From sequence record NC_105433.1: a stretch of 51,374 nucleotides of DNA; one strand, written 5' to 3'. Positions 28,210 through 49,356 of the stretch are shown piece by piece. Source of the DNA: a phage. Below the pieces are notes generated by a model that was given only the letters and a program-made list of their open reading frames with translations, did not search any database and was not told the origin of the DNA. Numbering within the stretch: the stretch's first letter is position 1; every line of letters starts with the position of its first letter. The position numbers and the translations under genes are program-made.

Positions 28210-28253
28210 ATAGCATTTTTTGTTAAAACAGTTTATTGTAATGAGTCTATTAT
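28210..28253 (+). promoter_or_regulatory. Box-type promoter upstream of the helicase
   Basis: atagcattttttgttaaaac, 22-nt spacer, then tattat; ATG at 28286. Confidence 0.45.
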
Positions 28254-28285
28254 ATACTCCAAATGGCATTTTTTAAAGGTTTAAG

Positions 28286-30283
28286 ATGATTCCAAATATC
28301 GAAAAACAAATATCAGCGTTAGGCGAGGCAGTAATAAAAAGCATCCAAGAGCGATTCACGGTTGGCAATATAGTGCCTTATCCTTATCAGTGCGTTGCGT
28401 ATGCCGAGATCGCAAAGCGCATGAAAAACTATGAGCATCCTTTCTTTGTTAAGGCTTCTGTGTCGGCTGGTAAAACATTGATGTTTGCGATGGTTGCGGC
28501 GCAATGCCGCAAGATGGGATTGAAAATGATGGTCCTTGCTCGCCAGGCTGAAATTGTTGATCAGGATTCAGAAGAGATCAGCAATCTTGGCGTGCCAAAC
28601 TCAATCTATTGCGCCGGACTGAAAACAAAAAGCGCATACTTTCCGATCGTAGTCGGTTCTGAGGGCACTGTAGTAAACGGATTGTTTAAGTCGTTAGGTG
28701 ATTATGTTCCGCACGTTATCGGTATTGATGAATGTCACCAGGTGGATTGGGAGGATCTCGCCGACGCGATAGAAAATAATGAATCTTACCAGCAGATGAC
28801 CACTAAGAAGGATTTGCCTGTACTGATTGGAGAAGAACAGCAATTTGATTCCAATGGCGATCCAATGTTCGGAACAGGGCGCACACAGTACACCGTAATA
28901 ATCATGGAAATGATGCGCAGGTGTCGCGAGTCATACGGGCACGAATTGCGAATATTCGGTATGACTGGATCTGAGTTTCGCGGCGTGGTTCCAATACTGG
29001 TTGAAGATAAGAACAAAAAGGGATTCTGGCGTGAGCAGGTGACTAACATAGACACAAACTACTTAATCAAATTCGGTTCGGTAGTGCCAACAAATTTCGG
29101 CGACGTAGGCGACCTGGGGTATGACCTTTCAGAGTTCGAAGCCAGTAGCGAGGATGGCGTTTCAGACTTTGACGCTAAAACATTGCGCAAGATGGAAGAA
29201 AAAATCCATCAAGACGCAACAATGACACAGAAAATCATGGCTAAAGTCCATGAGATATGCAAAGACAGGAACGGAGTTTTAGTTACATGCGCAGGGGAAA
29301 GGCACTGCAAGGAGGCCGCCGCCGCACTGCCCCCAGGCGTTGAATACAGGATCATAACTGGCAAGACTGGAGATAATCAGCGTAAAGAGTGGCTGAGGGA
29401 GGCATACGAGGGAAAAGTAAAATACATCTTCCAGGTACAGGCGCTTACCACTGGCGTTAACGTTCCGTTTTGGGATACTTCGGTAATACTGAGAAAGATA
29501 GGATCTCTAACATTGCTCATCCAGCTTTTGGGGCGCGGTATGCGACTGCTTAAGCAATGGCACATTGAGAAGGGATTCAAGAAAAAAGATCATCTTGTAT
29601 TGGATTTTGCAGGTACTATGGATGAGTTAGGGGATTTGTATTTCGATCCAATCCTTGAGCAAGCGCAATTCCAAAAGAGATTTACAAACGGTAAAGAGCC
29701 TAAGACTTGTCCGATATGTGGAACGCTAAACAGTTTTTACGCTCGCCGATGTATGCACGTAGACGATAACGGGAAACGATGTGAGCATTTTTGGACTTAC
29801 AGAATTTGCGAGGACCAGGTAGATCCGAGAACGAAAAAGATAATCAAGCGCGGTTGCGGAACAAAAAACGACGTAGTGGCGAGAGTTTGCCGTTGTTGCG
29901 ATATTTCTCTTGTCGATCCTAACGAGAAGTTAAGCGGCAAGCACTACACCAAAAACGATTGGTGCAACGTTAAATCTTTCCGCGTTGATATGACGAAAAA
30001 CCAAAAAGGAATTGTTTTTTGCTATGAGCTTGAGGCCAACGGCGACACGTTCAAGGCATACGAAAGATTTTTCCCTGAGTCAGAAAGCAACATTTGCCGG
30101 ACGATATGGAGAAAAATAGCATTGCAGCACATACCGGATCGCAAGATTGCTGGTATGGTGGCGAGCTATAGAAATGCGCGTAAAATAATGTCATACGCTC
30201 ATCACATCATGCCTCCTGTACGCGTAACGCATCGCAAAAACGGCAAAGGTGAGGATAACATTGCAAAACGGGAGTTTGTTTAA
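28286..30283 (+). CDS. DNA helicase (SF2, DExH) with C-terminal zinc ribbon
   Basis: 665 aa; Walker A SAGKT; DECH box (IGIDECHQVD); C-terminal CxxC...C cluster. Confidence 0.8.
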   Translation: MIPNIEKQISALGEAVIKSIQERFTVGNIVPYPYQCVAYAEIAKRMKNYEHPFFVKASVSAGKTLMFAMVAAQCRKMGLKMMVLARQAEIVDQDSEEISNLGVPNSIYCAGLKTKSAYFPIVVGSEGTVVNGLFKSLGDYVPHVIGIDECHQVDWEDLADAIENNESYQQMTTKKDLPVLIGEEQQFDSNGDPMFGTGRTQYTVIIMEMMRRCRESYGHELRIFGMTGSEFRGVVPILVEDKNKKGFWREQVTNIDTNYLIKFGSVVPTNFGDVGDLGYDLSEFEASSEDGVSDFDAKTLRKMEEKIHQDATMTQKIMAKVHEICKDRNGVLVTCAGERHCKEAAAALPPGVEYRIITGKTGDNQRKEWLREAYEGKVKYIFQVQALTTGVNVPFWDTSVILRKIGSLTLLIQLLGRGMRLLKQWHIEKGFKKKDHLVLDFAGTMDELGDLYFDPILEQAQFQKRFTNGKEPKTCPICGTLNSFYARRCMHVDDNGKRCEHFWTYRICEDQVDPRTKKIIKRGCGTKNDVVARVCRCCDISLVDPNEKLSGKHYTKNDWCNVKSFRVDMTKNQKGIVFCYELEANGDTFKAYERFFPESESNICRTIWRKIALQHIPDRKIAGMVASYRNARKIMSYAHHIMPPVRVTHRKNGKGEDNIAKREFV

Positions 30284-30702
30284 TGGCTATAACTGATAAA
30301 GGCGATTATCTTGAGTTTTACGAAAGGGATCCAACCGACACGAGAAGGGAAGTTAATCACCAGATAGATAGTTTTCAGTGGTTGAGTTATGCTCATCCTT
30401 ATTTGCTGGCGTGGCATACGGTAAACGAGAATGAGAAGTCTAAAGCAACGGCGATGATTGATCAGCAGTCCGGCTTGGTTAAGGGAGTAAGCGATTTCAT
30501 CATCCTGATTGGTTTAAACGGAAAATACCCCTTTGCAGCTATTGAGATCAAACGAGTGAATAAATCAGGCAAGGGGAAAGCATCACCAGTCAGCGATGAA
30601 CAAAAGGCTTTTTTGCGTCGCGTTCGCAGCTTAGGAGGATTCGCTGCGGTAGCCTACGGATTCAATCAGTTTAAGTTGGCTATTGAATACATGCTTAAAT
30701 AG
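30283..30702 (+). CDS. VRR-NUC-type nuclease (putative)
   Basis: 139 aa; ATGA overlap with the helicase; ...SDFIILIGLNG...AIEIKR segment resembles the PD-(D/E)XK core; by recollection only. Confidence 0.45.
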   Translation: MAITDKGDYLEFYERDPTDTRREVNHQIDSFQWLSYAHPYLLAWHTVNENEKSKATAMIDQQSGLVKGVSDFIILIGLNGKYPFAAIEIKRVNKSGKGKASPVSDEQKAFLRRVRSLGGFAAVAYGFNQFKLAIEYMLK

Positions 30703-30742
30703 CACTTTTTGTTAAAACTGGCGCGATGGATTGCGCCATAAT
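30698..30742 (+). promoter_or_regulatory. Box-type promoter cassette (box, hairpin, CATAAT)
   Basis: aatagcactttttgttaaaac overlapping the upstream TAG stop; hairpin ggcgc-gatggatt-gcgcc; cataat 22 nt after ttgtta. Confidence 0.5.
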
Positions 30743-30782
30743 TCAATAACACGAGATGGCTTTTAATAGCGGAGAAATGAAA

Positions 30783-31508
30783 ATGGCTAAAGATATTTTA
30801 GATAAAGACACCCATGACGCATTCGTTAGCTTTGAGCAGTTGGAGAGAGAAACGTTTATAGGGAATGCCCTTGCAACTGGAGGCCATTACCAGGCAGTAA
30901 AGCCAAATCAATATTATAAGGTAAGCGGAAACCGATACGCTGGAAGCACTACGCCGGACGTTGTGCGAGATATGTGGAGCACGCCTCAAGAGATCGTGGA
31001 GTGGATGGAATCAGAATTTGGTGAATACGATCTCGACGCGGCAGCAAGCCAGGAAAACGCAGTTTGCGAGAAGTTCTATAGCAAGGAGACAAACTGCTTA
31101 AAGCGTTGGTGGGGTAGAAACAAGCACGTATGGCTTAACCCGCCGTACAGCAACCCAACTCCATTTATCAAGAAAGCAATTGAGCAAATGGAGCACAACA
31201 ACCAAATTGATGTTTTGTTGCCAGCAGACAACTCTACAGCATGGTTTTATGAGGCGCAGAAAAACGCGGCTGAAATTATCTGGATCACTGGCGAGGTTTA
31301 CGAAGAGGGTGGAGTAGAATACTCCCGCACCGGAAGAATTGCCTTTGTGTCTGGATTGACTGGTGAGCCTGTGCAGGGCAACAACAAGGGAAGCGTGATT
31401 TTTGTCATGCGCAAACTTAAAGAAGGCGAGGAGCAGAAAACGCGATACGTTAAGATCAGCGATATTTGCCCTTCTGTAACCGAACGTCGCGCACGCAAAC
31501 GGAGCTAA
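30783..31508 (+). CDS. dam: DNA N6-adenine methyltransferase (Dam-like)
   Basis: ORF frame 30756..31508; ATG at 30783 has RBS ggag; NPPY catalytic motif (WLNPPYSN). Confidence 0.75.
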   Translation: MAKDILDKDTHDAFVSFEQLERETFIGNALATGGHYQAVKPNQYYKVSGNRYAGSTTPDVVRDMWSTPQEIVEWMESEFGEYDLDAAASQENAVCEKFYSKETNCLKRWWGRNKHVWLNPPYSNPTPFIKKAIEQMEHNNQIDVLLPADNSTAWFYEAQKNAAEIIWITGEVYEEGGVEYSRTGRIAFVSGLTGEPVQGNNKGSVIFVMRKLKEGEEQKTRYVKISDICPSVTERRARKRS

Positions 31509-31512
31509 AACG

Positions 31513-31770
31513 ATGGAAAAAGAGAGAAGCGTTTATTTAAATGAAACTGGTGAGTGGTTGTTATTTCGCGCTATGGTGTGCGATGCACTTGATAAAAACC
31601 CTAACGTGAAAAAGATGATTGATTGCGATCCGTGGGAATTTTCAAGCGCATTAGATATGAGCTTTGAGGAGACAAGAAAACTCCCTCTTGAAAAATGGCA
31701 CGAACAAATCAGAAATGACATGCAAGAGTTTGTCGATTCGTGGAATTTTCAGCACGGAATGATCCACTAA
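31513..31770 (+). CDS. Hypothetical protein
   Basis: 85 aa; stop embedded in the following box copy. Confidence 0.5.
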   Translation: MEKERSVYLNETGEWLLFRAMVCDALDKNPNVKKMIDCDPWEFSSALDMSFEETRKLPLEKWHEQIRNDMQEFVDSWNFQHGMIH

Positions 31771-31813
31771 TAGCACTTTTTGTTAAAACGCCCGGCCTAG
31801 TGTCGGGCATAAT
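31769..31813 (+). promoter_or_regulatory. Box-type promoter cassette (box, hairpin, CATAAT)
   Basis: aatagcactttttgttaaaac; hairpin gcccg-gcctagtgt-cgggc; cataat at about 31808-31813. Confidence 0.5.
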
Positions 31814-31845
31814 TATTTCAACGAAGCAAACATGAGGAAATAAAA

Positions 31846-32025
31846 ATGGTGGTATTCGATAAACGCGCTTTTAACCTTGCTCAAGAAGTAGCAAAAGGTT
31901 CAGTGGATGGCGGTTCAAAGGAAGGATTCCAGTTTGATTGGGAGATCGCAATGTTTTTACTGAAAGTTGCATACGGTCACGCGCCAATTGAACAAGCGGA
32001 GGCATATTATAAGCATGAAGGTTGA
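31846..32025 (+). CDS. Small hypothetical protein (59 aa), absent from the ORF track
   Basis: ATG at 31846 with RBS gagg; reads MVVFDKRAFNLAQEVAKGS... to a TGA at 32023-32025. Confidence 0.4.
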   Translation: MVVFDKRAFNLAQEVAKGSVDGGSKEGFQFDWEIAMFLLKVAYGHAPIEQAEAYYKHEG

Positions 32026-32257
32026 GCAAGGTAGAGATGCGGTATGGAATCACGCTAAAGAATGCGGAATAGCCGACGATATAAAGAAGATCGCGCAATA
32101 CTTTGATATTGCAGATGTGAGCATAATTAGCGGCGACAAGATGACTTTCCTCAAGGAAAGGCCGCGAAAAATGGTAAGAGTTCCAGCAGTTCCAACAAAA
32201 ATTGATTTCAAAGAGGCAATGGCTAAAATCCGAGAGCCTCGCAAATATTATAAATGA
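32015..32257 (+). CDS. Hypothetical protein
   Basis: Frame of ORF 31967..32257; internal ATG at 32015 preceded by ggagg, overlapping the end of the small ORF. Confidence 0.4.
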   Translation: MKVEQGRDAVWNHAKECGIADDIKKIAQYFDIADVSIISGDKMTFLKERPRKMVRVPAVPTKIDFKEAMAKIREPRKYYK

Positions 32258-32351
32258 GGATAGTTATCATGTGGCGCTTGTTTGTTCTACCGTTACCCGT
32301 TATCATCGCTGTTACAGTTATGTACCATATAGTGATGAGATAGGTAGCAGA

Positions 32352-33467
32352 ATGAAAAATGTAAAAATTACAGATGAGCAATTCAAGATCGAACGGGCGG
32401 CAGGTAAGACATATAAACAGATCGCTCAAGAGTACGGAATGAATGTGAGAAGCGTTGAGCGTCGCGCGGCGCGTCTTGCAAAGCAAGGACAGTTATCGAC
32501 CATCGGAGCGCCTGGTTTTGGTGTTCATGGTGAGTCAGTAATGACTGACAAAGAAGGAAATATAATCCTCAAGTGGACCAAAACCAGCAAGGATAAAGAG
32601 CAATTAGAGGCACTGATGCGCGCAGCTATGGAGGCGTTTAGCGAGGAAGTGCCGCGATTAGATCCAGTTCCATTGCAGGAGCGTAACTATAATGAAACGC
32701 TTTCATTGTATCCGATCTTTGACATGCACTTAGGAGCTATGGCCCATAAGCACGAATGCGGCGAAAATTGGGATACTGCGACGGCAGAGCGCGTTATGAA
32801 TAACTTTATCGACTATGCTTTGATGTGCGCACCGGACAGCGAAAAGGCTGTTATCCTGATTGGTGGCGATATGCTGCATAGCGACGGACTGGAGGCGGTG
32901 ACACCTGCAAGCGGTCACGTACTTGATCAAGATAGCCGATATGCAAAATTGGTTTACGTTGCAATACGTGCAATTCGCCGCGCAATTAATAAAATGCTGT
33001 TAAAGCATAAACATGTTGAGGTCCAGATCGTAGAGGGCAATCACGACCAATCAGGAATGATTTGGCTACGCGCAGCAATGGCGGCAGCATATGAGAACGA
33101 GCCGCGCGTTTACGTTGATGTTTCTCCTCGCGTTGTTCACCACACGCAATACGGAAAAACTTTCCTTGCGTACCATCACGGGCACACAGTGCGTAAACCG
33201 GAGACTTTGCTAATGATGTGCGCGTCAGATTGGCGGGAGGACTTCGGAAACTCAAAAACGATGTATGCGCACGTAGGGCACTGGCATCACCAGACCGTAA
33301 CAGAAACGTCGCTTGGCATCGTGGAGGTGCATAGCACCCTGGCGGCAAAAGACGCATACGCCGCGCGAGGTGGCTGGAGATCTCGACGCCGTGCAGCGGT
33401 TATCATTTACGACAAAGAGCATGGAGAAGTGGGGCGATTTGTTCACTATCCAGAAATGATGAGTTGA
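32352..33467 (+). CDS. Metallophosphoesterase (calcineurin-like) with N-terminal HTH domain
   Basis: Frame of ORF 32202..33467; ATG at 32352; HTH-like TYKQIAQEYGMNVRSVERR; phosphoesterase motifs GDMLHSDG, GNHD, GHWHH. Confidence 0.55.
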   Translation: MKNVKITDEQFKIERAAGKTYKQIAQEYGMNVRSVERRAARLAKQGQLSTIGAPGFGVHGESVMTDKEGNIILKWTKTSKDKEQLEALMRAAMEAFSEEVPRLDPVPLQERNYNETLSLYPIFDMHLGAMAHKHECGENWDTATAERVMNNFIDYALMCAPDSEKAVILIGGDMLHSDGLEAVTPASGHVLDQDSRYAKLVYVAIRAIRRAINKMLLKHKHVEVQIVEGNHDQSGMIWLRAAMAAAYENEPRVYVDVSPRVVHHTQYGKTFLAYHHGHTVRKPETLLMMCASDWREDFGNSKTMYAHVGHWHHQTVTETSLGIVEVHSTLAAKDAYAARGGWRSRRRAAVIIYDKEHGEVGRFVHYPEMMS

Positions 33468-33513
33468 TGAATTTTTATTTAAATCAATGACAAATTAAAT
33501 CAAAAACTTGCAA

Positions 33514-33543
33514 AGGGGCGGCGTTTGTCGCCTCTTTTTTTTG
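33514..33543 (+). terminator. Intrinsic terminator
   Basis: aggggcg-gcgtttgt-cgcctct followed by tttttttt. Confidence 0.55.
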
Positions 33544-33612
33544 TTTAATTTTTTACCATGTGCGTTTATCATGCGGTCAATATATTGACTTTAATTAATA
33601 TGGAGAATAAAA

Positions 33613-33828
33613 ATGAAAGATTTTATTAACGCAGCTACCGCCGGATCTGGCGGTTCATCTATCGCAAGCGCCGCTACAGGGCAGTTAACCATTGCTATTG
33701 CCAGTTTTATTTTAATGGCTGCATTCGGTGCGTGGGGCGCTTACCTTCGCTGGCGTGATAGTAAAAAATTCCACGAGGCGATCGAAAAAGGTGATATTCA
33801 AAAAGCTATTGAGATCAGGGGCAAGTAA
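33613..33828 (+). CDS. Holin (pinholin-like, putative)
   Basis: 71 aa; weakly hydrophobic Gly/Ala/Ser-rich first segment and strong second transmembrane segment; charged C-terminus; directly upstream of the endolysin. Confidence 0.6.
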
Positions 33829-34319
33829 TGAGCATAAAGAACAGGGTAGCGGCTGCGGCCTTTGGCGTTGCGGTTGCCTTGACTTCTCCACTTCTTGAAG
33901 AGATCGAAGGGGTAAGATACAAGCCATACAAAGATATTGCGGGGGTATGGACGGTTTGCGCAGGAATCACCGGACCAGATGTTATCCTGGGGAAAACGTA
34001 CACTAAAAAAGAGTGTGATGCTTTGTTGGCTAAACATATCCAGGTTGCTAAAAAAGAAGTTGACAAGCAGGTTAAGGTTGACATTCCTGATAGTATGCGT
34101 GCAGCAATGTACTCATTCACTTATAATGCAGGCGTGGGAGCTTTCAGAAATTCAACAATGCTGAAACTCATCAACCAGGGGAAATTAAAAGATGCTTGCG
34201 ATCAGCTTTATCGTTGGACGTATTACCATAACCCCAAAACAGGAAGGCGCGAGAAGTCTAAAGGCTTACTTAACAGGCGCAAGGTCGAATACAAATATTG
34301 CACAATGGATCTGAAATGA
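33828..34319 (+). CDS. SAR endolysin (lysozyme, glycoside hydrolase 24-like)
   Basis: 163 aa; N-terminal Ala/Gly-rich signal-anchor-release-like segment; catalytic-triad-like spacing E(GVRY)...D(IAG)...T(VCAG). Confidence 0.75.
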
Positions 34320-34950: not shown

Positions 34951-34986
34951 AATTTTACCTTTTGGTTGTTTCGTTTCGATGAAACA

Positions 34987-35031
34987 AATATACCCGACAC
35001 TAGGCCGGGCTTTTTAACAAAAAATGCTATT
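34987..35031 (-). promoter_or_regulatory. Box-type promoter cassette (minus strand)
   Basis: Minus strand: aatagcattttttgttaaaa, hairpin gcccggcctagtgtcggg, then tatatt 22 nt after ttgtta. Confidence 0.45.
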
Positions 35032-37120: not shown

Positions 37121-37140
37121 TCGTTAGCTTCTCCTTTGTG

Positions 37141-37193
37141 GGCCGTAAATTTTAACGGCCCAATACTACCCCGTTTTGTCAAAAAGTGCTATT
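37141..37193 (-). promoter_or_regulatory. Box-type promoter cassette with consensus TTGACA and hairpin-enclosed -10
   Basis: Minus strand: aaatagcactttttgacaaaac, 22 nt, taaaat; the -10 lies in the loop of the ggccgt...acggcc stem. Confidence 0.5.
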
Positions 37194-37793: not shown

Positions 37794-37822
37794 GATCAGA
37801 TCTCCTTTGTTTGTTCGATGTG

Positions 37823-37868
37823 ATTATGCCAGGTTTTTACACCTGGCTTTTAACAAAAAGTGCTATTT
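37823..37868 (-). promoter_or_regulatory. Box-type promoter cassette (box, hairpin, CATAAT)
   Basis: Minus strand: aatagcactttttgttaaaa, hairpin ccaggtgtaaaaacctgg, cataat, then RBS aaggag. Confidence 0.5.
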
Positions 37869-40120: not shown

Positions 40121-40368
40121 TAAATGATCTCCATGTATGTTTCAAAGCCATTTAACTTGAACAGGCCGTTTTCACATTTGCGCACGTTCCAAGTTAGCCC
40201 TGAGTGGTACGCTTCCATATCATCAAGGTCAATGGTGATTTCAGCACCTTTCTTAAACAAACCTTTTTCGTGAGACTTGTCGCGCTTAACAACTTTAACA
40301 TCAACCTGATTTTCCATCTTTAAATCCTCGCTTGTTGTCGATGGGTGTAATATACCATTCAGGCGCAC
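40120..40368 (-). CDS. Hypothetical protein
   Basis: 82 aa; preceded by a box and the conserved leader element. Confidence 0.5.
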   Translation of the reverse strand: MRLNGILHPSTTSEDLKMENQVDVKVVKRDKSHEKGLFKKGAEITIDLDDMEAYHSGLTWNVRKCENGLFKLNGFETYMEII

Positions 40369-40373
40369 ATCGT

Positions 40374-40393
40374 TTTTAACAAAAAGTGCTATT
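40374..40393 (-). promoter_or_regulatory. Box copy overlapping the stop of 40389..40730
   Basis: Plus strand ttttaacaaaaagtgctatt; downstream leader shares tattacacccatcgacaac with two other leaders. Confidence 0.45.
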
Positions 40394-40821: not shown

Positions 40822-40898
40822 TTTCAAATCCTCGCATTCGTTGTCGATGCGTGTAATGTACAGGAATGCGAGGATTGAGTTTTAACAAAAAGTGCTAT
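40822..40898 (-). promoter_or_regulatory. Box cassette with 10-bp perfect stem (cctcgcattc / gaatgcgagg) sequestering the RBS
   Basis: Minus strand: aatagcactttttgttaaaac, stem cctcgcattc, loop with tacattacacgcatcgacaac, stem gaatgcgagg, then ATG. Confidence 0.45.
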
Positions 40899-41162
40899 TT
40901 AGTCCAGGAATTCGATTTCACGCTCTCCAGTTAACGGATCTACAAGCCAGAATCCGAGCGGTTCGCCGTGAACACCGCCATAGAATCCAAGCGCTGTCAG
41001 ATCTTCACCTTTAACGAATACCAGGTTTCCGCTACGGCTTACGTGAGACACGTTAACGATAACCGGAAATGTGCGATCCTTAAATGCGGGCCGCAGGGCG
41101 TAACATCCGTTATTGAGCAAACGTGCTTTGCGCTTAACTGGAATAGGTGCATTAATTTTCAT
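40899..41162 (-). CDS. Hypothetical protein
   Basis: 87 aa; strong RBS aaggag; stop within the box. Confidence 0.5.
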   Translation of the reverse strand: MKINAPIPVKRKARLLNNGCYALRPAFKDRTFPVIVNVSHVSRSGNLVFVKGEDLTALGFYGGVHGEPLGFWLVDPLTGEREIEFLD

Positions 41163-42124: not shown

Positions 42125-42204
42125 TGCTATCTCCTGAGCGGTTCGTTTCGATGTGTGTAATGTACCCGATCAGACGGCCTGAGTTTTAACAAAAAGTGCT
42201 ATTT
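42125..42204 (-). promoter_or_regulatory. Box-type promoter cassette for the leftward block
   Basis: Minus strand: aaatagcactttttgttaaaac followed by leader gggtacattacacacatcgaaacgaaccgctcaggag and ATG. Confidence 0.45.
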
Positions 42205-42479
42205 GACGGTTAGCGCCAGGATTGTGATCGAAATAATCAGAAGTAATCATTCGTAATCAAATCACGTCAAAATGATGATTGCCTTTGCAAATTTGATGAG
42301 AAAAGCAATCACGTTTAATCATTGGTTGCAGGGGAGATAGTGAAACCCTCCCCTCTTGCCTCACTTTTCCGCCTGGCTGTCAGTGGTTGTTGTCTTTTGT
42401 TCACCCCTGTTACCGATTTCAGGCGGCGTGTTTCCGCGCGGTTTTCCGGTGTAGCGAAAACGGAAAAAACAAAGAAAAT

Positions 42480-42690
42480 CCTCTATAATACATTGAAAAT
42501 AAAGATTATTTATTTATATATATCTATAATGTTTTCTTTTTGTTCTCACTGTTACAGTGCTTTTTGTTGGGTGTGGTGTGGTTGTGTGTTGGTATATATG
42601 GATAGTTGCGCGCGCGGCGGATTGCATATGTATATATACTTTTTCCGGCGGATTGCGTTAACAGCGTGAACAGAAAAATAACAGCCCTGA
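42480..42690 (+). repeat. Noncoding block B, homologous to block A at 21420..21615
   Basis: Ordered sub-blocks: attatttatttat AT-rich run, G/T-rich run (ttgggtgtggtgtggttgtgtgttgg), then gcatatgtatatatac...ccggcgg...aacagaaaaataaca. Confidence 0.6.
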
Positions 42691-42757
42691 AATCAACAAC
42701 TTGCGCATGATTTTGTAGTTTTTCGATATTGGTAACGTTTTGAATACAACAAAAACA

Positions 42758-42785
42758 TTGACACGCACCAAATAGCTTTTATAAT
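42758..42785 (+). promoter_or_regulatory. Consensus sigma70 promoter (TTGACA, 16 nt, TATAAT) for the rightward early arm
   Basis: ttgaca at about 42758-42763 and tataat at about 42780-42785; RBS ggagg; ATG at 42817. Confidence 0.7.
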
Positions 42786-42816: not shown

Positions 42817-43281
42817 ATGGAACAGAAGACCACTAAGGACTATTGCGATTGGCTTCGCGAGCTTGGTCGCCGCCTGGCTAGTGGCGATATTGAAGAGTAT
42901 AAAATGTCACTAATTGACCTGGCCGGAATGTTAAGCGGTGACGACTGCTACAAGATCACGCGCAGTTCATCCTACAGCCGGACCATTATCAACCGCGTTC
43001 CAGAAGTAAGGGCCGCAGGTCGGGTAAGTATCAAGGTCGAGGAAACGGAAGATGATAAATTTTACGTTTTCCGCATGGTGCGCGAATCAAAAAGGAAAAT
43101 CATCACACCAGAAGAATTGCCAGCAATCAAGGCAAGGGCGATCAAAAAGTTTGCCGATCGCTTACTGGCAGCAATCCCGAACATCGTTGACCTGGAGGGT
43201 GATAAACTGGCTGGAGCTTGTGAGGGCGTAAGCCGCTACCAGGATATGATCCGCGAAATCATCAAAGAGGAGGAGCAATAA
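42817..43281 (+). CDS. Hypothetical early protein (first gene after the consensus promoter)
   Basis: Frame of ORF 42784..43281 (whose first ATG lies inside the -10); ATG at 42817 with RBS ggagg; about 154 aa. Confidence 0.55.
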   Translation: MEQKTTKDYCDWLRELGRRLASGDIEEYKMSLIDLAGMLSGDDCYKITRSSSYSRTIINRVPEVRAAGRVSIKVEETEDDKFYVFRMVRESKRKIITPEELPAIKARAIKKFADRLLAAIPNIVDLEGDKLAGACEGVSRYQDMIREIIKEEEQ

Positions 43282-43541
43282 TGAAAAAGGCATTAATCGG
43301 CGTTTTGGCGGCAATGACACTCCTGACCGGATGCGAAAAGGCATCAGAATCAACGGTTGTCGTAGGCGTGGAGTCAGATTTCAAAGTCGGTCGCCTGTTC
43401 ACTGTTGACGGATGCACAGCATACAGATTCTATGATAACGGTCGCGCGATCTATTACACCAATTGCAAAGGCGCAACGGATAGCACGTACAACAGCGGAA
43501 AGAACGTAATGCACCAGCAAGTCACAACAGATATTAAATAG
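43281..43541 (+). CDS. Lipoprotein (early), candidate superinfection exclusion factor
   Basis: 86 aa; ATGA overlap with the upstream gene; signal peptide with lipobox LLTGC; two further Cys. Confidence 0.5.
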   Translation: MKKALIGVLAAMTLLTGCEKASESTVVVGVESDFKVGRLFTVDGCTAYRFYDNGRAIYYTNCKGATDSTYNSGKNVMHQQVTTDIK

Positions 43542-43581
43542 CACTTTTTGTTAAAACGCCAGGCGCAAAGCCTGGCATAAT
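43537..43581 (+). promoter_or_regulatory. Box-type promoter cassette (box, perfect hairpin, CATAAT)
   Basis: aatagcactttttgttaaaac over the TAG stop; hairpin gccaggc-gcaaa-gcctggc; cataat 22 nt after ttgtta. Confidence 0.5.
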
Positions 43582-43613
43582 AGCCTCATCGAAACGAGAT
43601 TGAGGAAACAAAA

Positions 43614-43799
43614 ATGGCACGTCGCATCACCAAAGACCTTAAAGTCCTGAACAAAGAAAACGTAGTTAAAATCCTGGTTATCTGGGGCTACAACGAAGAA
43701 ACAGCAAAGCAGAAGGTCGAGGCGGGTTACGACCTGGCTGTAAAAGCAATGCCAAACGACGACGCAAAAGGCATTGCAAACTATGTGGCTTTCTTTTAA
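43614..43799 (+). CDS. Hypothetical protein
   Basis: 61 aa; RBS gagg; follows a box cassette. Confidence 0.5.
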   Translation: MARRITKDLKVLNKENVVKILVIWGYNEETAKQKVEAGYDLAVKAMPNDDAKGIANYVAFF

Positions 43800-43814
43800 T
43801 TAGCAGGTGAATAA

Positions 43815-44000
43815 ATGAAAACGAAATTAGTCCATAAATCAGAAATTAAGATCGGCGATACTGTGATTCACAACGGCGAGCTTAGAACGGTTGGCAAAGA
43901 GTCAATAAGCCACGATGAATTTATGGGGATCTTGTTGTTCGGTGACTCTTATCGTCTTGGTTACAAGATGGTTGAGCTTGTGGAAGAGGTAAAATTCTAA
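43815..44000 (+). CDS. Hypothetical protein
   Basis: 61 aa; RBS aggtg; stop embedded in the box. Confidence 0.5.
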   Translation: MKTKLVHKSEIKIGDTVIHNGELRTVGKESISHDEFMGILLFGDSYRLGYKMVELVEEVKF

Positions 44001-44044
44001 ATAGCACTTTTTGTTAAAACTCAAAAACGATAACCAGGCATAAT
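44000..44044 (+). promoter_or_regulatory. Box-type promoter cassette (no clear hairpin)
   Basis: aatagcactttttgttaaaac, 22 nt, cataat; RBS aggag before the ATG at 44100. Confidence 0.45.
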
Positions 44045-44099
44045 AAATCACATAGGGCGGCACGGCGTCGCCCAGTTAAACCAATCAGGAGAAAGCACC

Positions 44100-44993
44100 A
44101 TGTTAAAACTTGCTGACATTAAATTCCCGATCACTTTCGAATCTCGTGGCATTGGTCATTACATTTTTACCGATGAAAAAACATGCCATAAGGTTGATAT
44201 GAACAGCGACAAACTAAGTCCATCAACAATGGAGATTGAACACTTTATTGATGCGCACAATACGCACCACAACGCACTTAAAGACTATGGCTATGCAATG
44301 CCAGGCTACACATGCTTGCACTACAAGCCATATAAGGGCCAGGTGTTACCAGTGCGCTCACCGGAACGCGCAGAGATTCCGATGGTCAATATTAAAACCT
44401 GCGACTACAAAAAGCTGTGGTGCTTAAGTCTGGACAATATCAAGTATCCGATCACGTTCCACACGACTGGTAAGTCAACGATTCGCTACACATCTCGCGA
44501 CAATGGCGTTTATAGCGATGGTACGAAATCAGAGTTGAAAGTTAATTTCTTTGTAAATGGTCACAACAAATTCAATCCGCACAACGAAGAGGATAAAGTG
44601 TATTACGTGGAAGACATTACAAAACACTTGTTTGGAGAAACTCCATTCGGCGGCGGGAAGACGGCAATTCAGAAAATCATTGACGAGGAGATCCATAAAG
44701 CGGCTGTCGAAATGAAAGCGCCTGGAGGCTGGCGTATTGACAAGAGCGCATTTGCCTATCAAGAAATCGTAACGCAGGGAGCGATTGAAGATATGCCAGT
44801 TACAGCCACGCTAAAAGGAGTCCGGCTTGATGACGGCACATGGTATGAGTTAACGGCTACACCAAAGACGATCGAAATTCATGATGATGTTGTTATCCTT
44901 CTGCTTCACTACGGCGGCACTAAAAACCGGACTGTTGCAGGTGAGATCAGCATCAAGCGCGGAACGATGGTTAAGTGGAAGGTGAAGATTTGA
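44100..44993 (+). CDS. Hypothetical protein with internal tandem duplication
   Basis: 297 aa; LADIKFPITFESRGIGHYIFTDEK and LDNIKYPITFHTTGKSTIRYTSRD are repeated N-terminal modules. Confidence 0.55.
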   Translation: MLKLADIKFPITFESRGIGHYIFTDEKTCHKVDMNSDKLSPSTMEIEHFIDAHNTHHNALKDYGYAMPGYTCLHYKPYKGQVLPVRSPERAEIPMVNIKTCDYKKLWCLSLDNIKYPITFHTTGKSTIRYTSRDNGVYSDGTKSELKVNFFVNGHNKFNPHNEEDKVYYVEDITKHLFGETPFGGGKTAIQKIIDEEIHKAAVEMKAPGGWRIDKSAFAYQEIVTQGAIEDMPVTATLKGVRLDDGTWYELTATPKTIEIHDDVVILLLHYGGTKNRTVAGEISIKRGTMVKWKVKI

Positions 44994-45070
44994 GTTTGTT
45001 CACTGCGGCGCACGTCGCCGCATGGATAGGATTGTTTGCCTACCTGTTTAGCTTTTATTGAGGTGAGAGA

Positions 45071-45222
45071 TGGCTACCTGGATTTTGCTGATTCTTATGA
45101 TTGATGGCGGCGTTGACCATATCGAAATGAATAGCCAGCAATCTTGCATTGAGGCACGAGAGCAGATCAAGAACAACAACAGGTTTTATGCGTACACTCA
45201 CACGCTATGTATTAAGAAATAG
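45071..45222 (+). CDS. Small hypothetical protein (50 aa), absent from the ORF track
   Basis: RBS gaggtg; reads MATWILLILMIDGGVDHIEMNSQQSCIEAREQIKNNNRFYAYTHTLCIKK; TAG stop at 45220-45222 inside the box. Confidence 0.4.
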
Positions 45223-45261
45223 CACGAATTGTTAAAACTCAAATGTGGGGCCAGGTATAAT
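45218..45261 (+). promoter_or_regulatory. Box-type promoter cassette (variant box, TATAAT in a short stem-loop)
   Basis: aatagcacgaattgttaaaac, 21 nt, tataat flanked by ggcc...ggcc. Confidence 0.45.
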
Positions 45262-45291
45262 GGCCTCACTTTCAACGAGAGGGGAAACACG

Positions 45292-45519
45292 ATGGAAAGT
45301 TTAATCATCCAGAAGAAAATGAAGTGCGTCAGTGTAGCGCCAGGTTGCGGATTTATGTTCACAGTGGGGCATATCTACTCCGCGCAGAAGATGAGAACAT
45401 CAACCGGATCGTTTTACGTCAATAACAATCAAGGATACCGCATGTTCCTGAACGGTCAAAACGGCAACGAAATTTGCGCTTACGCAGACATTATCGCAAC
45501 CTTTGAGGAAGTGAAATAA
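45292..45519 (+). CDS. Small protein, tandem paralogue A
   Basis: Frame of ORF 45229..45519; ATG at 45292 with RBS gagagggg; shares G(Y)(R/K)(M/F)(F/Y)LNG(Q/N)NG(N/T)EI...FE(E/Q) with the next gene. Confidence 0.5.
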   Translation: MESLIIQKKMKCVSVAPGCGFMFTVGHIYSAQKMRTSTGSFYVNNNQGYRMFLNGQNGNEICAYADIIATFEEVK

Positions 45520-45764
45520 TGATCATCGAAAACAACTTTCTTTGCGTTAAGAGCAATCGACCATTCTTCACGCCTGGCAAGGTGTACCAGGGCAAGAAGG
45601 ACACAAGAGATGGTCACTCTTATCATGTTCACTGCAACAACGGATACAAGTTTTACCTCAACGGTAATAATGGAACTGAGATTGTTGCGTTTGAAAACGT
45701 AATTGCCGAGTTCGAGCAGATTACAGACGCGGAATTTGAGGAAGTGAAAGATGAAAACAAATAA
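45519..45764 (+). CDS. Small protein, tandem paralogue B
   Basis: 81 aa; ATGA overlap with paralogue A. Confidence 0.5.
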   Translation: MIIENNFLCVKSNRPFFTPGKVYQGKKDTRDGHSYHVHCNNGYKFYLNGNNGTEIVAFENVIAEFEQITDAEFEEVKDENK

Positions 45765-45972
45765 GCGCGTCAAGCACAGGTTTACTGATAACCACGGCGA
45801 CGCGATTGATGTATACAAGTTCGGCGATCGCGTGTTTATTGATGGCACGTTTGAAGGTGGTCGTAGGCCGGATTTTAGGTCGATACTTACCGTTGACCAA
45901 GTGCGCAAGCTGGCAGATAAGTTAAATGATCTGGCAGATGAAATAGAATACAAGCAAATCCATTTTAATTGA
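45751..45972 (+). CDS. Hypothetical protein
   Basis: 73 aa; overlaps the upstream gene end. Confidence 0.45.
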   Translation: MKTNKRVKHRFTDNHGDAIDVYKFGDRVFIDGTFEGGRRPDFRSILTVDQVRKLADKLNDLADEIEYKQIHFN

Positions 45973-45983
45973 TAGGTTTGATA

Positions 45984-46697
45984 ATGAAAAAATACACTTT
46001 CGAACTGTGGGGCAAGAAGTACGAATTAATCACCAGCAAGCCGATTGTTATCGTTGACCTGGACGGCACACTATCGGACGGATCGCATCGTTTGCATTTG
46101 CTGCCAACTGAAAACTTGCACCTTACGGAATCGTGGCGCGAGTTTAACAGGGCCGCCGCCGGAGATTCACCGATTAAAAGCACTATCGCGGTTATTAACG
46201 GTTTATGGGTGTCGGGATTTGCCATCGTCATCTTGACCGGACGCAGCGACGAGGTTCGCTATGAAACCTGCAAATGGTTGAATGAGAACGGCGTGAAGTT
46301 TGACGAAATCATCATGCGCCGCCAGGAGGACAACCGAAAGGATACGGTTATTAAAGAAGAAGCCTTGCGCGCTATTGGCCTGGACAACATTGTTTGCGCC
46401 TTTGACGATTCGCCGAACGTGGTTAAGCACTTCCGCAGCTTGGGGATCACAACCTATCAGGTCACGGAATACGACAAGCCACACGCTCACATACAATCTC
46501 ACGGCGTGGAATCAATCAAGATCACGAAGCGCGCCCGATTCGTCGGCAGCAAAGACAGCCTGGTCAATGCCAGCTTTATCAAAGGCAAGGTTTATGATGT
46601 TCATAGCCATGATAAAAACAGATTCTTTTTGTGGGATGAAAAAGGTTTTGGCTGGTGCTTTGAACACGACGACGGCGATTTTGTTAATGCGGAATAG
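45984..46697 (+). CDS. HAD-superfamily phosphatase (nucleotidase or Pnk-phosphatase-like, putative)
   Basis: Frame of ORF 45969..46697; ATG at 45984; HAD motif I VIVDLDGTLSDG; stop embedded in the box. Confidence 0.5.
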   Translation: MKKYTFELWGKKYELITSKPIVIVDLDGTLSDGSHRLHLLPTENLHLTESWREFNRAAAGDSPIKSTIAVINGLWVSGFAIVILTGRSDEVRYETCKWLNENGVKFDEIIMRRQEDNRKDTVIKEEALRAIGLDNIVCAFDDSPNVVKHFRSLGITTYQVTEYDKPHAHIQSHGVESIKITKRARFVGSKDSLVNASFIKGKVYDVHSHDKNRFFLWDEKGFGWCFEHDDGDFVNAE

Positions 46698-46743
46698 CAC
46701 TTTTTGTTAAAACAGATTGTCGGGCTTGCGGTATAGTAAGCCC
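46693..46743 (+). promoter_or_regulatory. Box-type promoter cassette with hairpin-enclosed TATAGT
   Basis: aatagcactttttgttaaaac, 22 nt, tatagt in the loop of gggctt...aagccc. Confidence 0.5.
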
Positions 46744-46768
46744 ATCAACAACAAACGAGGATTAAATC

Positions 46769-47032
46769 ATGGCTAACAAGATCGAGTTTTTTAAAGCGGT
46801 AGACATTATTGATGGCGCGCCTAGCTTCTTTGCCATCCATTCTATTGACGGCAAGGATATTGGGTACAACGTTATCCGTCGAGATGGAATCTCAAAACTT
46901 AGTGACCTGGTAGGCCATATTGTGTCAAACGGGAAATGCGCATGGCCCGATTCGCCACGAGAGCCACGCCGCCGCGACATGGTAGAGCCTGTTCTGCTTT
47001 ACACTCTGGTAGTAGAAGGAGAAAATAAATGA
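46769..47032 (+). CDS. Hypothetical protein
   Basis: 87 aa; RBS gagg. Confidence 0.5.
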   Translation: MANKIEFFKAVDIIDGAPSFFAIHSIDGKDIGYNVIRRDGISKLSDLVGHIVSNGKCAWPDSPREPRRRDMVEPVLLYTLVVEGENK

Positions 47033-47214
47033 TTTGGTTACTTGCTTTTTTGGTTGTTTTTCTTTACATTTCAGGCTTGTTTACGTTCCGCGCGTTGGTG
47101 AAATATTCTGACACGACAGACAAAGACGATAAAATCGTTCTCGCTTTCTGGTTTGTTTGGGTGTGGTTAGCAATTTACGAGATCATCAGAGACAAACAGA
47201 AATTTGAGTGGTGA
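47029..47214 (+). CDS. Small membrane protein (two predicted transmembrane segments)
   Basis: 61 aa; ATGA overlap; hydrophobic segments LLAFLVVFLYISGLF and IVLAFWFVWVWLAIY. Confidence 0.5.
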   Translation: MIWLLAFLVVFLYISGLFTFRALVKYSDTTDKDDKIVLAFWFVWVWLAIYEIIRDKQKFEW

Positions 47215-47222
47215 TTCTTGCT

Positions 47223-47252
47223 ATGGCGCATTCATGCAGTGCGCCATTTTGA
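47223..47252 (+). terminator. Hairpin plus short T-run
   Basis: tggcgca-ttcatgcag-tgcgcca followed by tttt. Confidence 0.4.
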
Positions 47253-47270
47253 GAAAACCTAAAGGGGGAA

Positions 47271-47423
47271 ATGATGCGTAACTTTGAAAAAATCATTACC
47301 AAAAAGAAGCGTCGCGGGTACGATGAGCATGTGGAGCTTGTGAAAAAGCAACGCAAGAAGCGCAACGAAGACAAGAAGCGTGGGAAAAAATTTAATGCGA
47401 TTTTTCGCTATGGAGATCATTAA
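47271..47423 (+). CDS. Small highly basic protein (50 aa), absent from the ORF track
   Basis: RBS aaaggggg; reads MMRNFEKIITKKKRRGYDEHVELVKKQRKKRNEDKKRGKKFNAIFRYGDH; stop overlaps the kinase start region. Confidence 0.35.
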   Translation: MMRNFEKIITKKKRRGYDEHVELVKKQRKKRNEDKKRGKKFNAIFRYGDH

Positions 47424-47425
47424 TC

Positions 47426-48016
47426 ATGAAACGAGACATTATCATCCTTAATGGGCCGCCAGGTTGCGGGAAGGACACTATTGCAGCTTACCTAACGGGC
47501 CATCGTTACCCTGCTGTCAAGGCGTCATTCAAACAGCCGATGTTCGATATTGCTTTTTCTATGCTGGGCGTGTACCGATACGATGAATTTATGGACCTGT
47601 ACAACGACCGAGAGCAAAAAGAAAAGCCTCAAGTTATCTTGGGCGGCAAGTCACCTCGACAATTCATGATCTGGATTAGCGAGGATGTAATGAAGCCAGT
47701 TTTTGGGGATCACTATTTCGGGCGTCGAATGGTTGAAGAGATTCACGAGATGTACCGAGATTTGGCGGTTGTGATCAGTGATGGCGGATTCCCCGAAGAA
47801 ATCAAGCCGCTGGTTAAGGCAGGGCATGAAGTGCATATTTGCCGATTGCATCGCGACGGCTTCACGTTTGCTGGCGATTCGAGAGACTACATTGACCTGA
47901 GCGGTTATCACTATCGAATCCATCACTATGATTTCCACTTGCAGGACGGTAAGCCGGAACTGGCTGTAAACGAGATCGTCAATGCTGTCAAATGGAAGCA
48001 CACACAGATTAAATAG
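47426..48016 (+). CDS. P-loop nucleotide kinase (dNMP kinase-like, putative)
   Basis: 196 aa; Walker A GPPGCGKDT at residues 10-18. Confidence 0.55.
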   Translation: MKRDIIILNGPPGCGKDTIAAYLTGHRYPAVKASFKQPMFDIAFSMLGVYRYDEFMDLYNDREQKEKPQVILGGKSPRQFMIWISEDVMKPVFGDHYFGRRMVEEIHEMYRDLAVVISDGGFPEEIKPLVKAGHEVHICRLHRDGFTFAGDSRDYIDLSGYHYRIHHYDFHLQDGKPELAVNEIVNAVKWKHTQIK

Positions 48017-48056
48017 CACGAATTGCTAAACGCGGGGCGCAATGCCTCGCTATAAT
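48012..48056 (+). promoter_or_regulatory. Box-type promoter cassette (variant box, hairpin, TATAAT)
   Basis: aatagcacgaattgctaaac, 22 nt including gcgggg...cctcgc, then tataat; RBS gagagg; ATG at 48087. Confidence 0.5.
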
Positions 48057-48086
48057 GCAAACACCAATCAACGAGAGGAAATCACA

Positions 48087-48467
48087 ATGGTTAACATCAG
48101 AAAAATCCGCGTCGGCACTAAATTCTTAGTTACTTACGCAATTCCAGATAGCGGAATGAAGAAGGGCCAGATTGTTAAGGTTGATAGCAAAAGATTCGGA
48201 ATCCCTGGTATCAATGGCTATCTAATCAATAGAGATCTTGGATTCGACGGCTTCGCTATCCGTGCGCTTGAGGGTATTGTTGCCACTCTTAAACGAATCA
48301 CTAATCATCGCGGCTGCCCAATCAAGACGATTAAAGCGCCAATAAATTACGGCAAACTGGATAATCGTCGAATCCGCCGCCTGGCGCGTAACGCGTTAAA
48401 ATTCCGTGGCGTAGGCGATGATTTCTACTATGGATACAAGAGGATTGCGCGCAATGCTGGGAAATAA
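48087..48467 (+). CDS. Hypothetical basic protein
   Basis: Frame of ORF 48042..48467; ATG at 48087 with RBS gagagg; about 126 aa. Confidence 0.5.
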   Translation: MVNIRKIRVGTKFLVTYAIPDSGMKKGQIVKVDSKRFGIPGINGYLINRDLGFDGFAIRALEGIVATLKRITNHRGCPIKTIKAPINYGKLDNRRIRRLARNALKFRGVGDDFYYGYKRIARNAGK

Positions 48468-48566
48468 CAATAACGCAACGAATCCTAAGCCACCTTTTGA
48501 TTTTCATTCCGCAATGATTGCGGTATTATCAATGCTACTTTTTCTTTATAGCATGAGGGCGCTACT

Positions 48567-48815
48567 ATGGTTTTTAACGCATTGAAACGACTGTTTAAGC
48601 CGGAATACCGGATCGTATTTTGCCGCGACTGTTCTACTTATCATGTGCAGCGACGCAGCTTAGGCGGCAATTGGCACTATGTTACAGACGACTTTTTCGG
48701 CATCATTGCCACTGAATTTAAGTATTACAGTGATGCTTATATGTACGTGAAGAAGCGCCACCGCTTACGCAAGTGTCGTTTTTCCGTGCTGATTCACGTT
48801 AATGATTGTTACTGA
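48567..48815 (+). CDS. Hypothetical Cys-containing protein (possible zinc binding)
   Basis: 82 aa; CRDCSTYH motif and further Cys residues; RBS gaggg. Confidence 0.45.
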   Translation: MVFNALKRLFKPEYRIVFCRDCSTYHVQRRSLGGNWHYVTDDFFGIIATEFKYYSDAYMYVKKRHRLRKCRFSVLIHVNDCY

Positions 48816-48822
48816 GGTGAAA

Positions 48823-49005
48823 ATGAAAACTGGTATTATTATTCTTTTCCTGATCCTTTTCGGTAGCCATTTAACCATTAACTATGAGGGCATTATGGCC
48901 TTTTGGGGCAACTTGATGGTTTTTGCCGCTGGTTCAATTACTGGCTACTCTGACGGGAAAAAGGACGGCGTTCGCAAGATGCTGATGGGACTTAAACAAA
49001 AATAA
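48823..49005 (+). CDS. Small membrane protein
   Basis: Frame of ORF 48802..49005; ATG at 48823 with RBS gaggtg; two hydrophobic segments. Confidence 0.45.
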   Translation: MKTGIIILFLILFGSHLTINYEGIMAFWGNLMVFAAGSITGYSDGKKDGVRKMLMGLKQK

Positions 49006-49016
49006 GGGGATCTGAA

Positions 49017-49307
49017 ATGGCAAACAAAACTTACCGCAAACTACTGGTTAACGCTTTTGAAAACATCGCGCAGTGTAACAAGTGGAACGACTCTAAACAC
49101 TCGCCAGTCACAATGAAGCGGGCCGGATTCAAAAATGCTCGTTCATGGGCGCGAGCTTTCGCAGCTTGCTATATGCCGGATGGTGGACTAGGAGCGATGA
49201 ATGATTTTTTGATCAACATGATAGAGGAAGCTGCGCGAGAGGATCGACCGCTGACACAGCGAGATTTTGACGACTTCGCGCGCGATGAGCTTTACTATCT
49301 GAGCTAA
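49017..49307 (+). CDS. Hypothetical protein
   Basis: 96 aa; RBS aagggga; stop embedded in the box. Confidence 0.5.
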   Translation: MANKTYRKLLVNAFENIAQCNKWNDSKHSPVTMKRAGFKNARSWARAFAACYMPDGGLGAMNDFLINMIEEAAREDRPLTQRDFDDFARDELYYLS

Positions 49308-49356
49308 TAGCACTTTTTGTTAAAACTTCCGCAAGGGCATTTGATAAAGTGCCCTT
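49306..49356 (+). promoter_or_regulatory. Box-type promoter cassette with hairpin-enclosed -10-like hexamer
   Basis: aatagcactttttgttaaaac, then perfect stem aagggca / tgccctt with loop tttgataaag (taaagt 22 nt after ttgtta). Confidence 0.45.

Follow-up and report, generated by a model that had tools for sequence, protein, structure and literature searches.

A repeated 21-nt box in a T1-like phage resembles the marbox of class II Mar/Sox/Rob promoters and is joined to hairpins

A 21-nucleotide (nt) box that recurs between the genes of the phage sequence NC_105433.1 (51,374 nt, analysed whole and called the window here) is the upstream half of ~17 phage promoters. We propose that the cassettes in which the box is co-oriented with the flanking genes are class II sigma70-type promoters of the Mar/Sox/Rob kind, each joined to a hairpin that resembles an attenuator, with the box as the predicted binding site (marbox) of an activator, and we give this reading a probability of a little over one half (roughly 0.55). 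By Megablast the window is ~99% identical to Escherichia phages atuna, tonnikala, tiwna and FritzSarasin (Drexlerviridae, Tempevirinae, Warwickvirus), a placement from which we take it to be the genome of a T1-like virulent siphovirus.

The 21-mer AATAGCACTTTTTGTTAAAAC matches the window 16 times at up to three mismatches and matches dinucleotide shuffles not at all, and a position weight matrix (PWM) built from those 16 matches finds 21 copies where none is expected. A sequence-only reading of this DNA had described about 20 copies, at coordinates that are all correct to within 1-3 nt. It had also called them co-oriented with their genes, which holds for 17 of the 21; three copies that run opposite to the flanking genes (6775-6795(-), 10529-10549(-) and 26647-26667(+)) and a degenerate one at 16459(+) had been overlooked, and with these four the element reaches outside 28210-49356. 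A -10 hexamer follows the box in 17 of the 21 copies, 18 nt beyond the box end in 15 of these cassettes and 17 nt beyond it in the other two, 21327(-) and 45218(+). The TTGTTA inside the box lies 21-22 nt from the hexamer, ~5 bp too far for a sigma70 -35. The stop codon of the upstream open reading frame falls inside the box or abuts it in 16 of the 17 cassettes with a -10, as TAG at box positions 3-5 (n = 10), TAA at the box start (n = 4) or TAA at box position 16 (n = 2); the exception, 42203(-), has no upstream gene. The downstream start codon follows the box start by 70-85 nt in all but one of the 17, the exception being 44000 with 100 nt. A single copy, 37173-37193(-), carries TTGACA. The fixed spacing, its misfit to a -35, the embedded stop codons and the lone TTGACA variant had all been noticed in the sequence-only reading and are borne out here. 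The copies, with the coordinates and strand of each cassette or box, are:

2150-2213, plus: box copy AATAGCACTAATTGCTAAAAA, starting at 2150, behind the large terminase gene; GATTTT at offset 18 is not a good -10; TATAAT is conserved 4 nt past the box, and a terminator hairpin (2173-2213) comes next
6751-6795, minus: box opposite to the flanking genes, just upstream of the major capsid gene; poor -10 (TATTAG); position conserved in T1
10498-10549, minus: reverse-oriented cassette between the major tail and tape-measure-chaperone genes; box 10529-10549, -10 TAGATT 10505-10510
16459-16479, plus: degenerate copy, AACAGCACAAAAGGTTAAAAG, where the J-like tail tip gene begins; orthologous to DR8 of TLS; lacks a -10
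21277-21327, minus: cassette; box 21307-21327, -10 TATAGT 21284-21289 at offset 17, downstream gene start 21257
26647-26667, plus: box with no -10, between two minus-strand genes (primase and tail fibre) and reverse-oriented to them
28209-28260, plus: cassette before the helicase gene (start 28286); box 28209-28229, -10 TATTAT 28248-28253, facing and overlapping the promoter of the divergent Cro-like regulator gene
30698-30749, plus: cassette before the Dam methylase gene; box 30698-30718, spacer hairpin 30719-30738, -10 CATAAT 30737-30742
31769-31820, plus: cassette; box 31769-31789, hairpin GCCCGGCCTAGTGTCGGGC 31790-31808, -10 CATAAT 31808-31813, downstream gene start 31846
34980-35031, minus: cassette; box 35011-35031, hairpin 34992-35010, -10 TATATT 34987-34992, downstream gene start 34950
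37142-37193, minus: cassette with the TTGACA box variant; box 37173-37193, -10 TAAAAT 37149-37154 in the loop of hairpin 37139-37162, downstream gene start 37120
37816-37867, minus: cassette; box 37847-37867, hairpin 37828-37847, -10 CATAAT 37823-37828, downstream gene start 37793
40342-40393, minus: cassette; box 40373-40393, -10 TATATT 40349-40354, downstream gene start 40317
40848-40899, minus: cassette; box 40879-40899, -10 TACATT 40855-40860, downstream gene start 40821
42152-42203, minus: first leftward cassette; box 42183-42203, -10 TACATT 42159-42164, downstream gene start 42124
43537-43588, plus: cassette; box 43537-43557, hairpin 43558-43576, -10 CATAAT 43576-43581, predicted CA start ~43588, downstream gene start 43614
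44000-44051, plus: cassette without hairpin; box 44000-44020, -10 CATAAT 44039-44044, downstream gene start 44100
45218-45268, plus: GAA-type cassette; box 45218-45238, -10 TATAAT 45256-45261 at offset 17 and in the hairpin loop, downstream gene start 45292
46693-46744, plus: cassette; box 46693-46713, -10 TATAGT 46732-46737 in the loop of hairpin GGGCTT...AAGCCC, downstream gene start 46769
48012-48063, plus: GAA-type cassette; box 48012-48032, hairpin 48032-48050, -10 TATAAT 48051-48056, downstream gene start 48087
49306-49357, plus: cassette; box 49306-49326, -10 TAAAGT 49345-49350 in the loop of hairpin AAGGGCA...TGCCCTT, downstream gene start 49383

In T1 (Tunavirinae), a Klebsiella Webervirus, a Braunvirinae phage and a further Tempevirinae phage, no word is more over-represented than the box, and it stays constant across Tunavirinae, Tempevirinae, Braunvirinae and Webervirus, whose proteins share only 50-65% identity. 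Scanning IMG/VR for the pattern yielded 120 loci, nearly all on contigs of 40-52 kb. Matches off Drexlerviridae-sized contigs were chance matches without a -10, with the exception of one 27-kb contig, likely a partial member of the family. This gave a sample of 454 unique cassettes, 216 of them non-redundant, from many Drexlerviridae. Over the 454, a sigma70 -10 PWM scores +4.1 bits at offset 18 against about -5 bits elsewhere (range -2.3 to -7.1). With the hexamer set as -12 to -7, which places the box at -51 to -31, the family cassettes have G-14 in 69%, T-12 in 63%, A-11 in 76% and T-7 in 78%, then C at -1 in 65% and A at +1 in 65%, after which the leader reads ATCGAAAC. No recognisable -35 hexamer is found in them: positions -35 to -30 read AAAACn, nothing of the kind stands at 16-18 bp, and TTGYTA lies 22 bp upstream of the -10. 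A second conserved -10-like hexamer occurs 4-5 nt past the box in two ortholog groups (window 2171-2180 and 37160-37170; also L002 and other loci), as TATAAT or as TAGTAT, TAGAAT and TATCAT; relative to these hexamers the marbox would lie at about -32 to -18.

Canonical sigma70 promoters are not enriched in the window, where the sole perfect consensus promoter, TTGACA-16-TATAAT at 42758-42785(+), precedes gene 42817..43281, which encodes a DUF7174 protein and is followed by a gene for an 86-amino-acid protein. These two genes are not conserved across the family and probably form an immediate-early unit.

The identity that we assign to the box comes from its match to the sites of MarA, SoxS and Rob, for which the published consensus AYnGCACnnWnnRYYAAAY is degenerate and asymmetric (PMC3709825). 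Box positions 2-20, ATAGCAC-TTT/GAA-TTG-T/C-TAAAA, agree with all of its constrained positions but the last Y. At up to one mismatch the full 19-mer consensus has 20 matches in the window and 0.87 in shuffles, and the box at 48012(+) matches it perfectly; with the last Y dropped (AYnGCACnnWnnRYYAAA) there are 17 perfect matches against 0.06, and a more recent marbox definition, gcannwwntgnnaaa (PMC12052159), gives 19 perfect matches against 0.5. In the 216 non-redundant cassettes the variation of the box is confined to the degenerate positions of the marbox consensus: position -43 is free (T 57%, G 30%) like the marbox n, -42 and -41 are exclusively A or T like its W, and -37 (C 55%, T 35%) and -36 (T or C) behave like its Y, with GCAC, G-38 and AAA conserved at 94-100%. 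The marbox of the mar operon, read directly as ATGCCACGTTTTGCTAAATC, is identical to the family-majority box ATAGCACTTTTTGCTAAAAC at 16 of 20 positions.

The position of the box points the same way. In 17 of the 21 copies the marbox is forward, with GCAC distal and AAA proximal to the -10, which is the orientation in micF, and it overlaps the -35 position with its centre at -40 to -41. Class II marboxes cluster near -41, and the micF soxbox, with GCAC as its A site and CAAA as its B site, is centred at -41.5 (PMC9638938). The Escherichia coli micF promoter, read directly, is ACAGCACTGAATGTCAAAAC-18 nt-TAGAAT-7 nt-+1, so that it has in common with the phage cassettes the 18-nt spacing and the orientation, and also a final A in place of the consensus Y. 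The cassettes are thus like class II MarA/SoxS/Rob(/RamA) promoters, of which micF is the archetype, in marbox sequence, forward orientation, overlap with the -35, 18 bp to a canonical -10 and the lack of a -35 hexamer. They are unlike the host promoters in that the sites lie on a virulent genome at ~17 per genome, are much nearer to consensus and nearly identical to each other, and are joined both to hairpins and to an upstream gene's stop codon; activator binding to them is a prediction.

In the mechanism that we propose, box positions 2-21 would form a forward marbox with its A site GCAC at -47 to -44 and its B site TAAA at -36 to -33, filling the place of the absent -35 and ending 18 bp ahead of a good -10. 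A monomeric activator with two helix-turn-helix (HTH) motifs, of the MarA/SoxS/Rob family (RamA in Klebsiella and Salmonella), would bind the box, with the constitutive Rob or the induced MarA and SoxS as candidates. In the class II complex solved by cryo-electron microscopy, SoxS touches the alpha C-terminal domain, sigma70 region 4 and the beta flap (PMC9638938); as in these micF structures, the bound activator would recruit the host RNA polymerase, touching its alpha C-terminal domain and sigma70 region 4. Transcription is predicted to start at the conserved C-A 7 nt past the hexamer, with a leader beginning AUCGAAAC..., and the TAG within the box serves also as stop of the upstream gene. 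The sequence-only reading had offered promoters needing a factor as one of several options, and it is to this option that the evidence points.

The reader of the box is most likely a host protein, since no MarA-like protein was detected in the phage: neither phmmer nor tblastn found a MarA homologue there (with an approximate MarA query), and Pfam found no MarA- or AraC-like domain in 17 early phage proteins. PDB sequence searches with two core small proteins came back empty. Moreover, proteins differ by 35-50% between Drexlerviridae subfamilies and the box is constant, for which a reader conserved in the hosts would be the simplest explanation.

Several points weigh against this proposal. The box is tighter than the marbox consensus: marbox positions 3 and 11 are A and T, and -51 is A. 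In most phage boxes A takes the place of the final consensus Y, though micF has that A too, and the four reverse-oriented or degenerate copies fall outside class I rules. A class I reading of the reverse-oriented copies was rejected, there being no space for a promoter 60 nt downstream. Vibrio phage Vc1 (L129, MT360682.2; Jhansiroadvirus, Drexlerviridae) carries the same cassettes of box and -10. Unstressed cells have little MarA or SoxS, and Rob shows little activity unless an inducer is present; for a fast virulent phage to make its early genes depend on these three would be odd. Finally, for LL5, a T1-like phage >90% identical to TLS, a Keio single-knockout screen reported only receptor and lipopolysaccharide genes, secB and ppiB, and not rob, marA or soxS (PMC7229145). 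None of the three is therefore singly essential, and redundancy, basal activity or effects below the threshold of the screen would have to reconcile our reading with this result.

The same screen is in keeping with a box whose reader is a phage protein of no relation to MarA, either a repressor (stoperator) or an activator of class II type, a reading that we consider unlikely. The box does contain an imperfect dyad, TAGCA-N5-TG(C/T)TA, centred at -42, and the lone consensus promoter at 42758-42785 suggests that some genes are expressed in a first wave, ahead of the box promoters. The candidates are an uncharacterised early protein and the product of the core gene 27722..28198(-), a transcriptional regulator. 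No other core HTH protein has a sigma70-like promoter of its own, and the promoter of this one overlaps box 28209. This regulator was modelled as a single-HTH Cro-like domain (pLDDT, the predicted local distance difference test score, 85.6) whose best PDB matches are Xfaso 1 Cro and N15 Cro; it might act through its N-terminal motif DKRxxNGNNGxxR (D14 R16 N19 G20 N21 N22 G23 R26 D29 R33), which is invariant like the box and predicted to be disordered. The protein also has a conserved Cys-containing C-terminal part. Its putative recognition helix, however, varies widely among 28 homologues and the box does not, and together with the single-HTH Cro fold this led us to reject it as reader of the dyad, whose flanks are moreover asymmetric. 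The DUF7174 gene and its neighbour, not being conserved in the family, were rejected as source of a universal factor. A non-homologous protein would have had to reproduce the degeneracy of the marbox and the spacing of micF by chance.

That the host RNA polymerase needs no help at all, with the -10 and its G-14 aided by the A/T tracts of the box as by an UP element or by TTGYTA as a displaced -35, and with the marbox likeness a coincidence, seems to us less likely still. The -10 hexamers are good and G-14 is frequent, early genes need to fire immediately after infection, and the Keio screen yielded no host transcription factor; the box, too, is A/T at 16 of 21 positions, and its T5-N3-A4 is like the UP core. 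UP elements are A/T-rich, lie at -59 to -38 upstream of the -35 and are read by the alpha C-terminal domain. The box, in contrast, is at -51 to -31 with no -35, its A/T tracts sit ~8 bp too near the -10, and its invariant G/C positions (GCAC, and G-38 in TTG) are not targets of that domain, so the UP-element dependence suggested in the sequence-only reading does not hold. TTGYTA, at 22 bp from the -10, is beyond the usable range of spacers, and agreement by chance with 13 of the 14 constrained marbox positions and with the micF spacing is very improbable.

It is very improbable, too, that the box acts in read-through RNA as a processing site, translational operator or 3' stabiliser and is no promoter element. 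The stop codons overlapped by the box and the hairpins behind it are what such a role would have in its favour, and AU-rich single-stranded RNA beside a stem is the typical context of RNase E. But an RNA element has no need of a -10 exactly 18 nt away or of a CA start 7 nt beyond it, and the processing or operator site that the sequence-only reading had also considered leaves this fixed DNA distance unexplained; furthermore, the first leftward cassette, 42203(-), has no upstream gene to be read through from, and a search for a known RNA family gave no Rfam match.

Other known elements were compared with the box, and most were rejected. The sigma54 consensus is TGGCAC-N5-TTGCW with a fixed distance from GG to GC; the box reads TAGCAC-N3-TTGCT, with AG for GG and a spacing 2 bp short. 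By eye, promoters of sigma32 and sigma28 and the MotA box of T4 misfit in spacing or key bases, and consensus sites of IHF, Fis, CRP and DnaA do not fit. The half-sites of the Lrp site YAGHAWATTWTDCTR fit at 12-13 of 15 positions by eye, far more weakly than the marbox, and without matching promoter geometry. T4 middle promoters, which combine a MotA box and a -10 through sigma appropriation, are alike in that an activator site replaces the -35 and the -10 is kept. The MotA box, however, is at -30, with ~12 bp between it and the -10, and its readers, MotA and AsiA, are phage proteins, whereas our box is centred near -40 and no phage reader of it was found.

The second part of the cassette is the hairpin. 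The region from -32 to +14 has a mean minimum free energy (MFE) of -10.65 kcal/mol (shuffles, -5.86; random genomic windows, -7.16; p = 1e-14), and an MFE of -10 or lower is seen in 59% of cassettes and in 21% of random windows. The stem's 3' arm ends just ahead of the -10, or else past it with the hexamer in the loop. Orthologous cassettes keep the stem with unrelated sequences, for example the group upstream of the ATPase gene. Two hairpins in the window have a U-rich tract behind them and were flagged as terminator-like; most others have none. A role in attenuation or 3' stabilisation is therefore putative; most likely the hairpin would attenuate or stabilise read-through transcripts arriving from upstream. 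At 40830-40871(-) the -10 and the predicted start lie within a perfect 10-bp inverted repeat, CCTCGCATTC...GAATGCGAGG, which would pair with the Shine-Dalgarno sequence in read-through transcripts only, not in transcripts from its own promoter.

A precedent for such an arrangement is found in the promoter-early stem-loop (PeSL) cassettes of the T4-type phages phi1 and RB49 (PMC2839356, PMC4122927), which were demonstrated to be promoters and attenuators (PMC2839356). The sequence-only reading had pointed to this likeness, and the enrichment of hairpins at or before the -10 upholds it. In both, the upstream stop codon lies in an AT-rich segment, a stem-loop stands between the upstream element and the -10 or overlaps the -10, a Shine-Dalgarno sequence and ATG follow the promoter, the cassettes are dense among small genes of unknown function, and there are hints of recombination at the cassettes. 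They differ in that PeSLs have a sigma70 -35 at normal spacing and no conserved 21-nt box, and in that the promoter and terminator activities of PeSLs have been measured, those of the Drexlerviridae cassettes being predicted from sequence.

The hints of recombination are of two kinds. An identical 18-nt spacer, gcccggcctagtgtcggg, occurs on opposite strands at 31790-31807 (cassette 31769+) and 34993-35010 (cassette 35031-), which suggests gene conversion between cassettes. In comparison with FritzSarasin, 3 of 16 breakpoints fall within 60 nt of a box (P ~0.05) and 5 of 16 within 66 nt; the segment 40390-40880, replaced relative to FritzSarasin, is flanked on both sides by boxes, 40393(-) and 40899(-), and breakpoints 37919, 45294 and 46693 are also at most 66 nt from boxes. 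Shuffling of gene modules through the cassettes is a mark of PeSLs; in the window these observations hint at cassette-mediated exchange.

The repeat itself has already been published, contrary to the supposition of the sequence-only reading that it had gone undescribed for T1-like phages. The 2024 genome paper on TLS reports a 21-nt direct repeat in 18 copies (DR1-DR18) with the consensus aaATAGCACnnnTTGnTAAAA, found also in T1, Rtp and Rogue1 (PMC11447400). These repeats are intergenic, run along the direction of transcription, stand ~76 nt upstream of start codons and form TTT, GAA and AAA subtypes; their authors suggested stoperators, enhancer sites or UP elements and listed the function as an open question (PMC11447400). 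In consensus, intergenic place, co-orientation and distance to the start codon, the TLS repeat and the window box are the identical element. The TLS paper does not have the 18-nt distance to the -10, the CA start, the hairpins or the marbox identity. The earlier sequence-only interpretation thus stands as far as promoter cassettes are concerned; its UP element and its novelty do not, and it had overlooked the marbox, whose identification is the new part here. A literature search found the exact box sequence in no relevant paper and no transcriptome or transcription-start-site study of Drexlerviridae, and in the searchable literature we found no paper linking marboxes or MarA to T1-like phages and no earlier proposal of a class II Mar/Sox/Rob promoter joined to a PeSL-like hairpin.

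The identification offers a testable answer to the published question on the repeats of T1-like phages. More tentatively, and at what we take to be slightly less than even odds, Drexlerviridae in general, including therapeutic Klebsiella Webervirus phages, may drive most of their early and middle genes from consensus class II marboxes. If so, their gene expression would be wired to the MarA, SoxS, Rob and RamA regulators of host stress and multidrug resistance; infection would gain from constitutive mar, ram or sox activity in the host, or from inducers such as salicylate, bile salts and redox drugs, and would suffer in a marA soxS rob triple mutant. These would be rare virulent phages in relying on, or sensing, a host stress-regulator family for most of their promoters. 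This would matter for phage-antibiotic combinations, since many multidrug-resistant Enterobacteriaceae up-regulate MarA, RamA and SoxS; among the listed MarA targets is TolC, which TLS-like phages use as receptor. Practical uses would be better promoter annotation in hundreds of Drexlerviridae genomes and compact activator-responsive promoter parts.

Some of the copies that run against their genes have features of their own. In the reverse cassette at 10464-10549(-), a -10 is kept in all orthologs (TAGATT, TAGGAT, TAAGAT, TACGAT) and aims into a bidirectional terminator; the predicted RNA of ~35-40 nt, with conserved GAUUUUACAGRAAUGAA..., is a candidate small antisense RNA. At 6751-6841, read in the direction of the major capsid gene, the box has TGcTATCAT (TGcTATTAT in T1), an extended -10, followed by a terminator-like hairpin; MarA-repressed promoters have a backward marbox overlapping the promoter, an arrangement like this one. 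The position of the box at 26647-26667(+) is kept in T1 and other genera, together with a conserved flank, GATTTTATCATTGTG. Apart from the boxes, a non-coding gap of ~550 nt separates divergent transcription units at 42204-42757, with iteron-like (A/G)TAATCA repeats at ~10-nt spacing (42225-42330) and a very AT-rich stretch (42470-42640), and may be a replication origin or packaging region.

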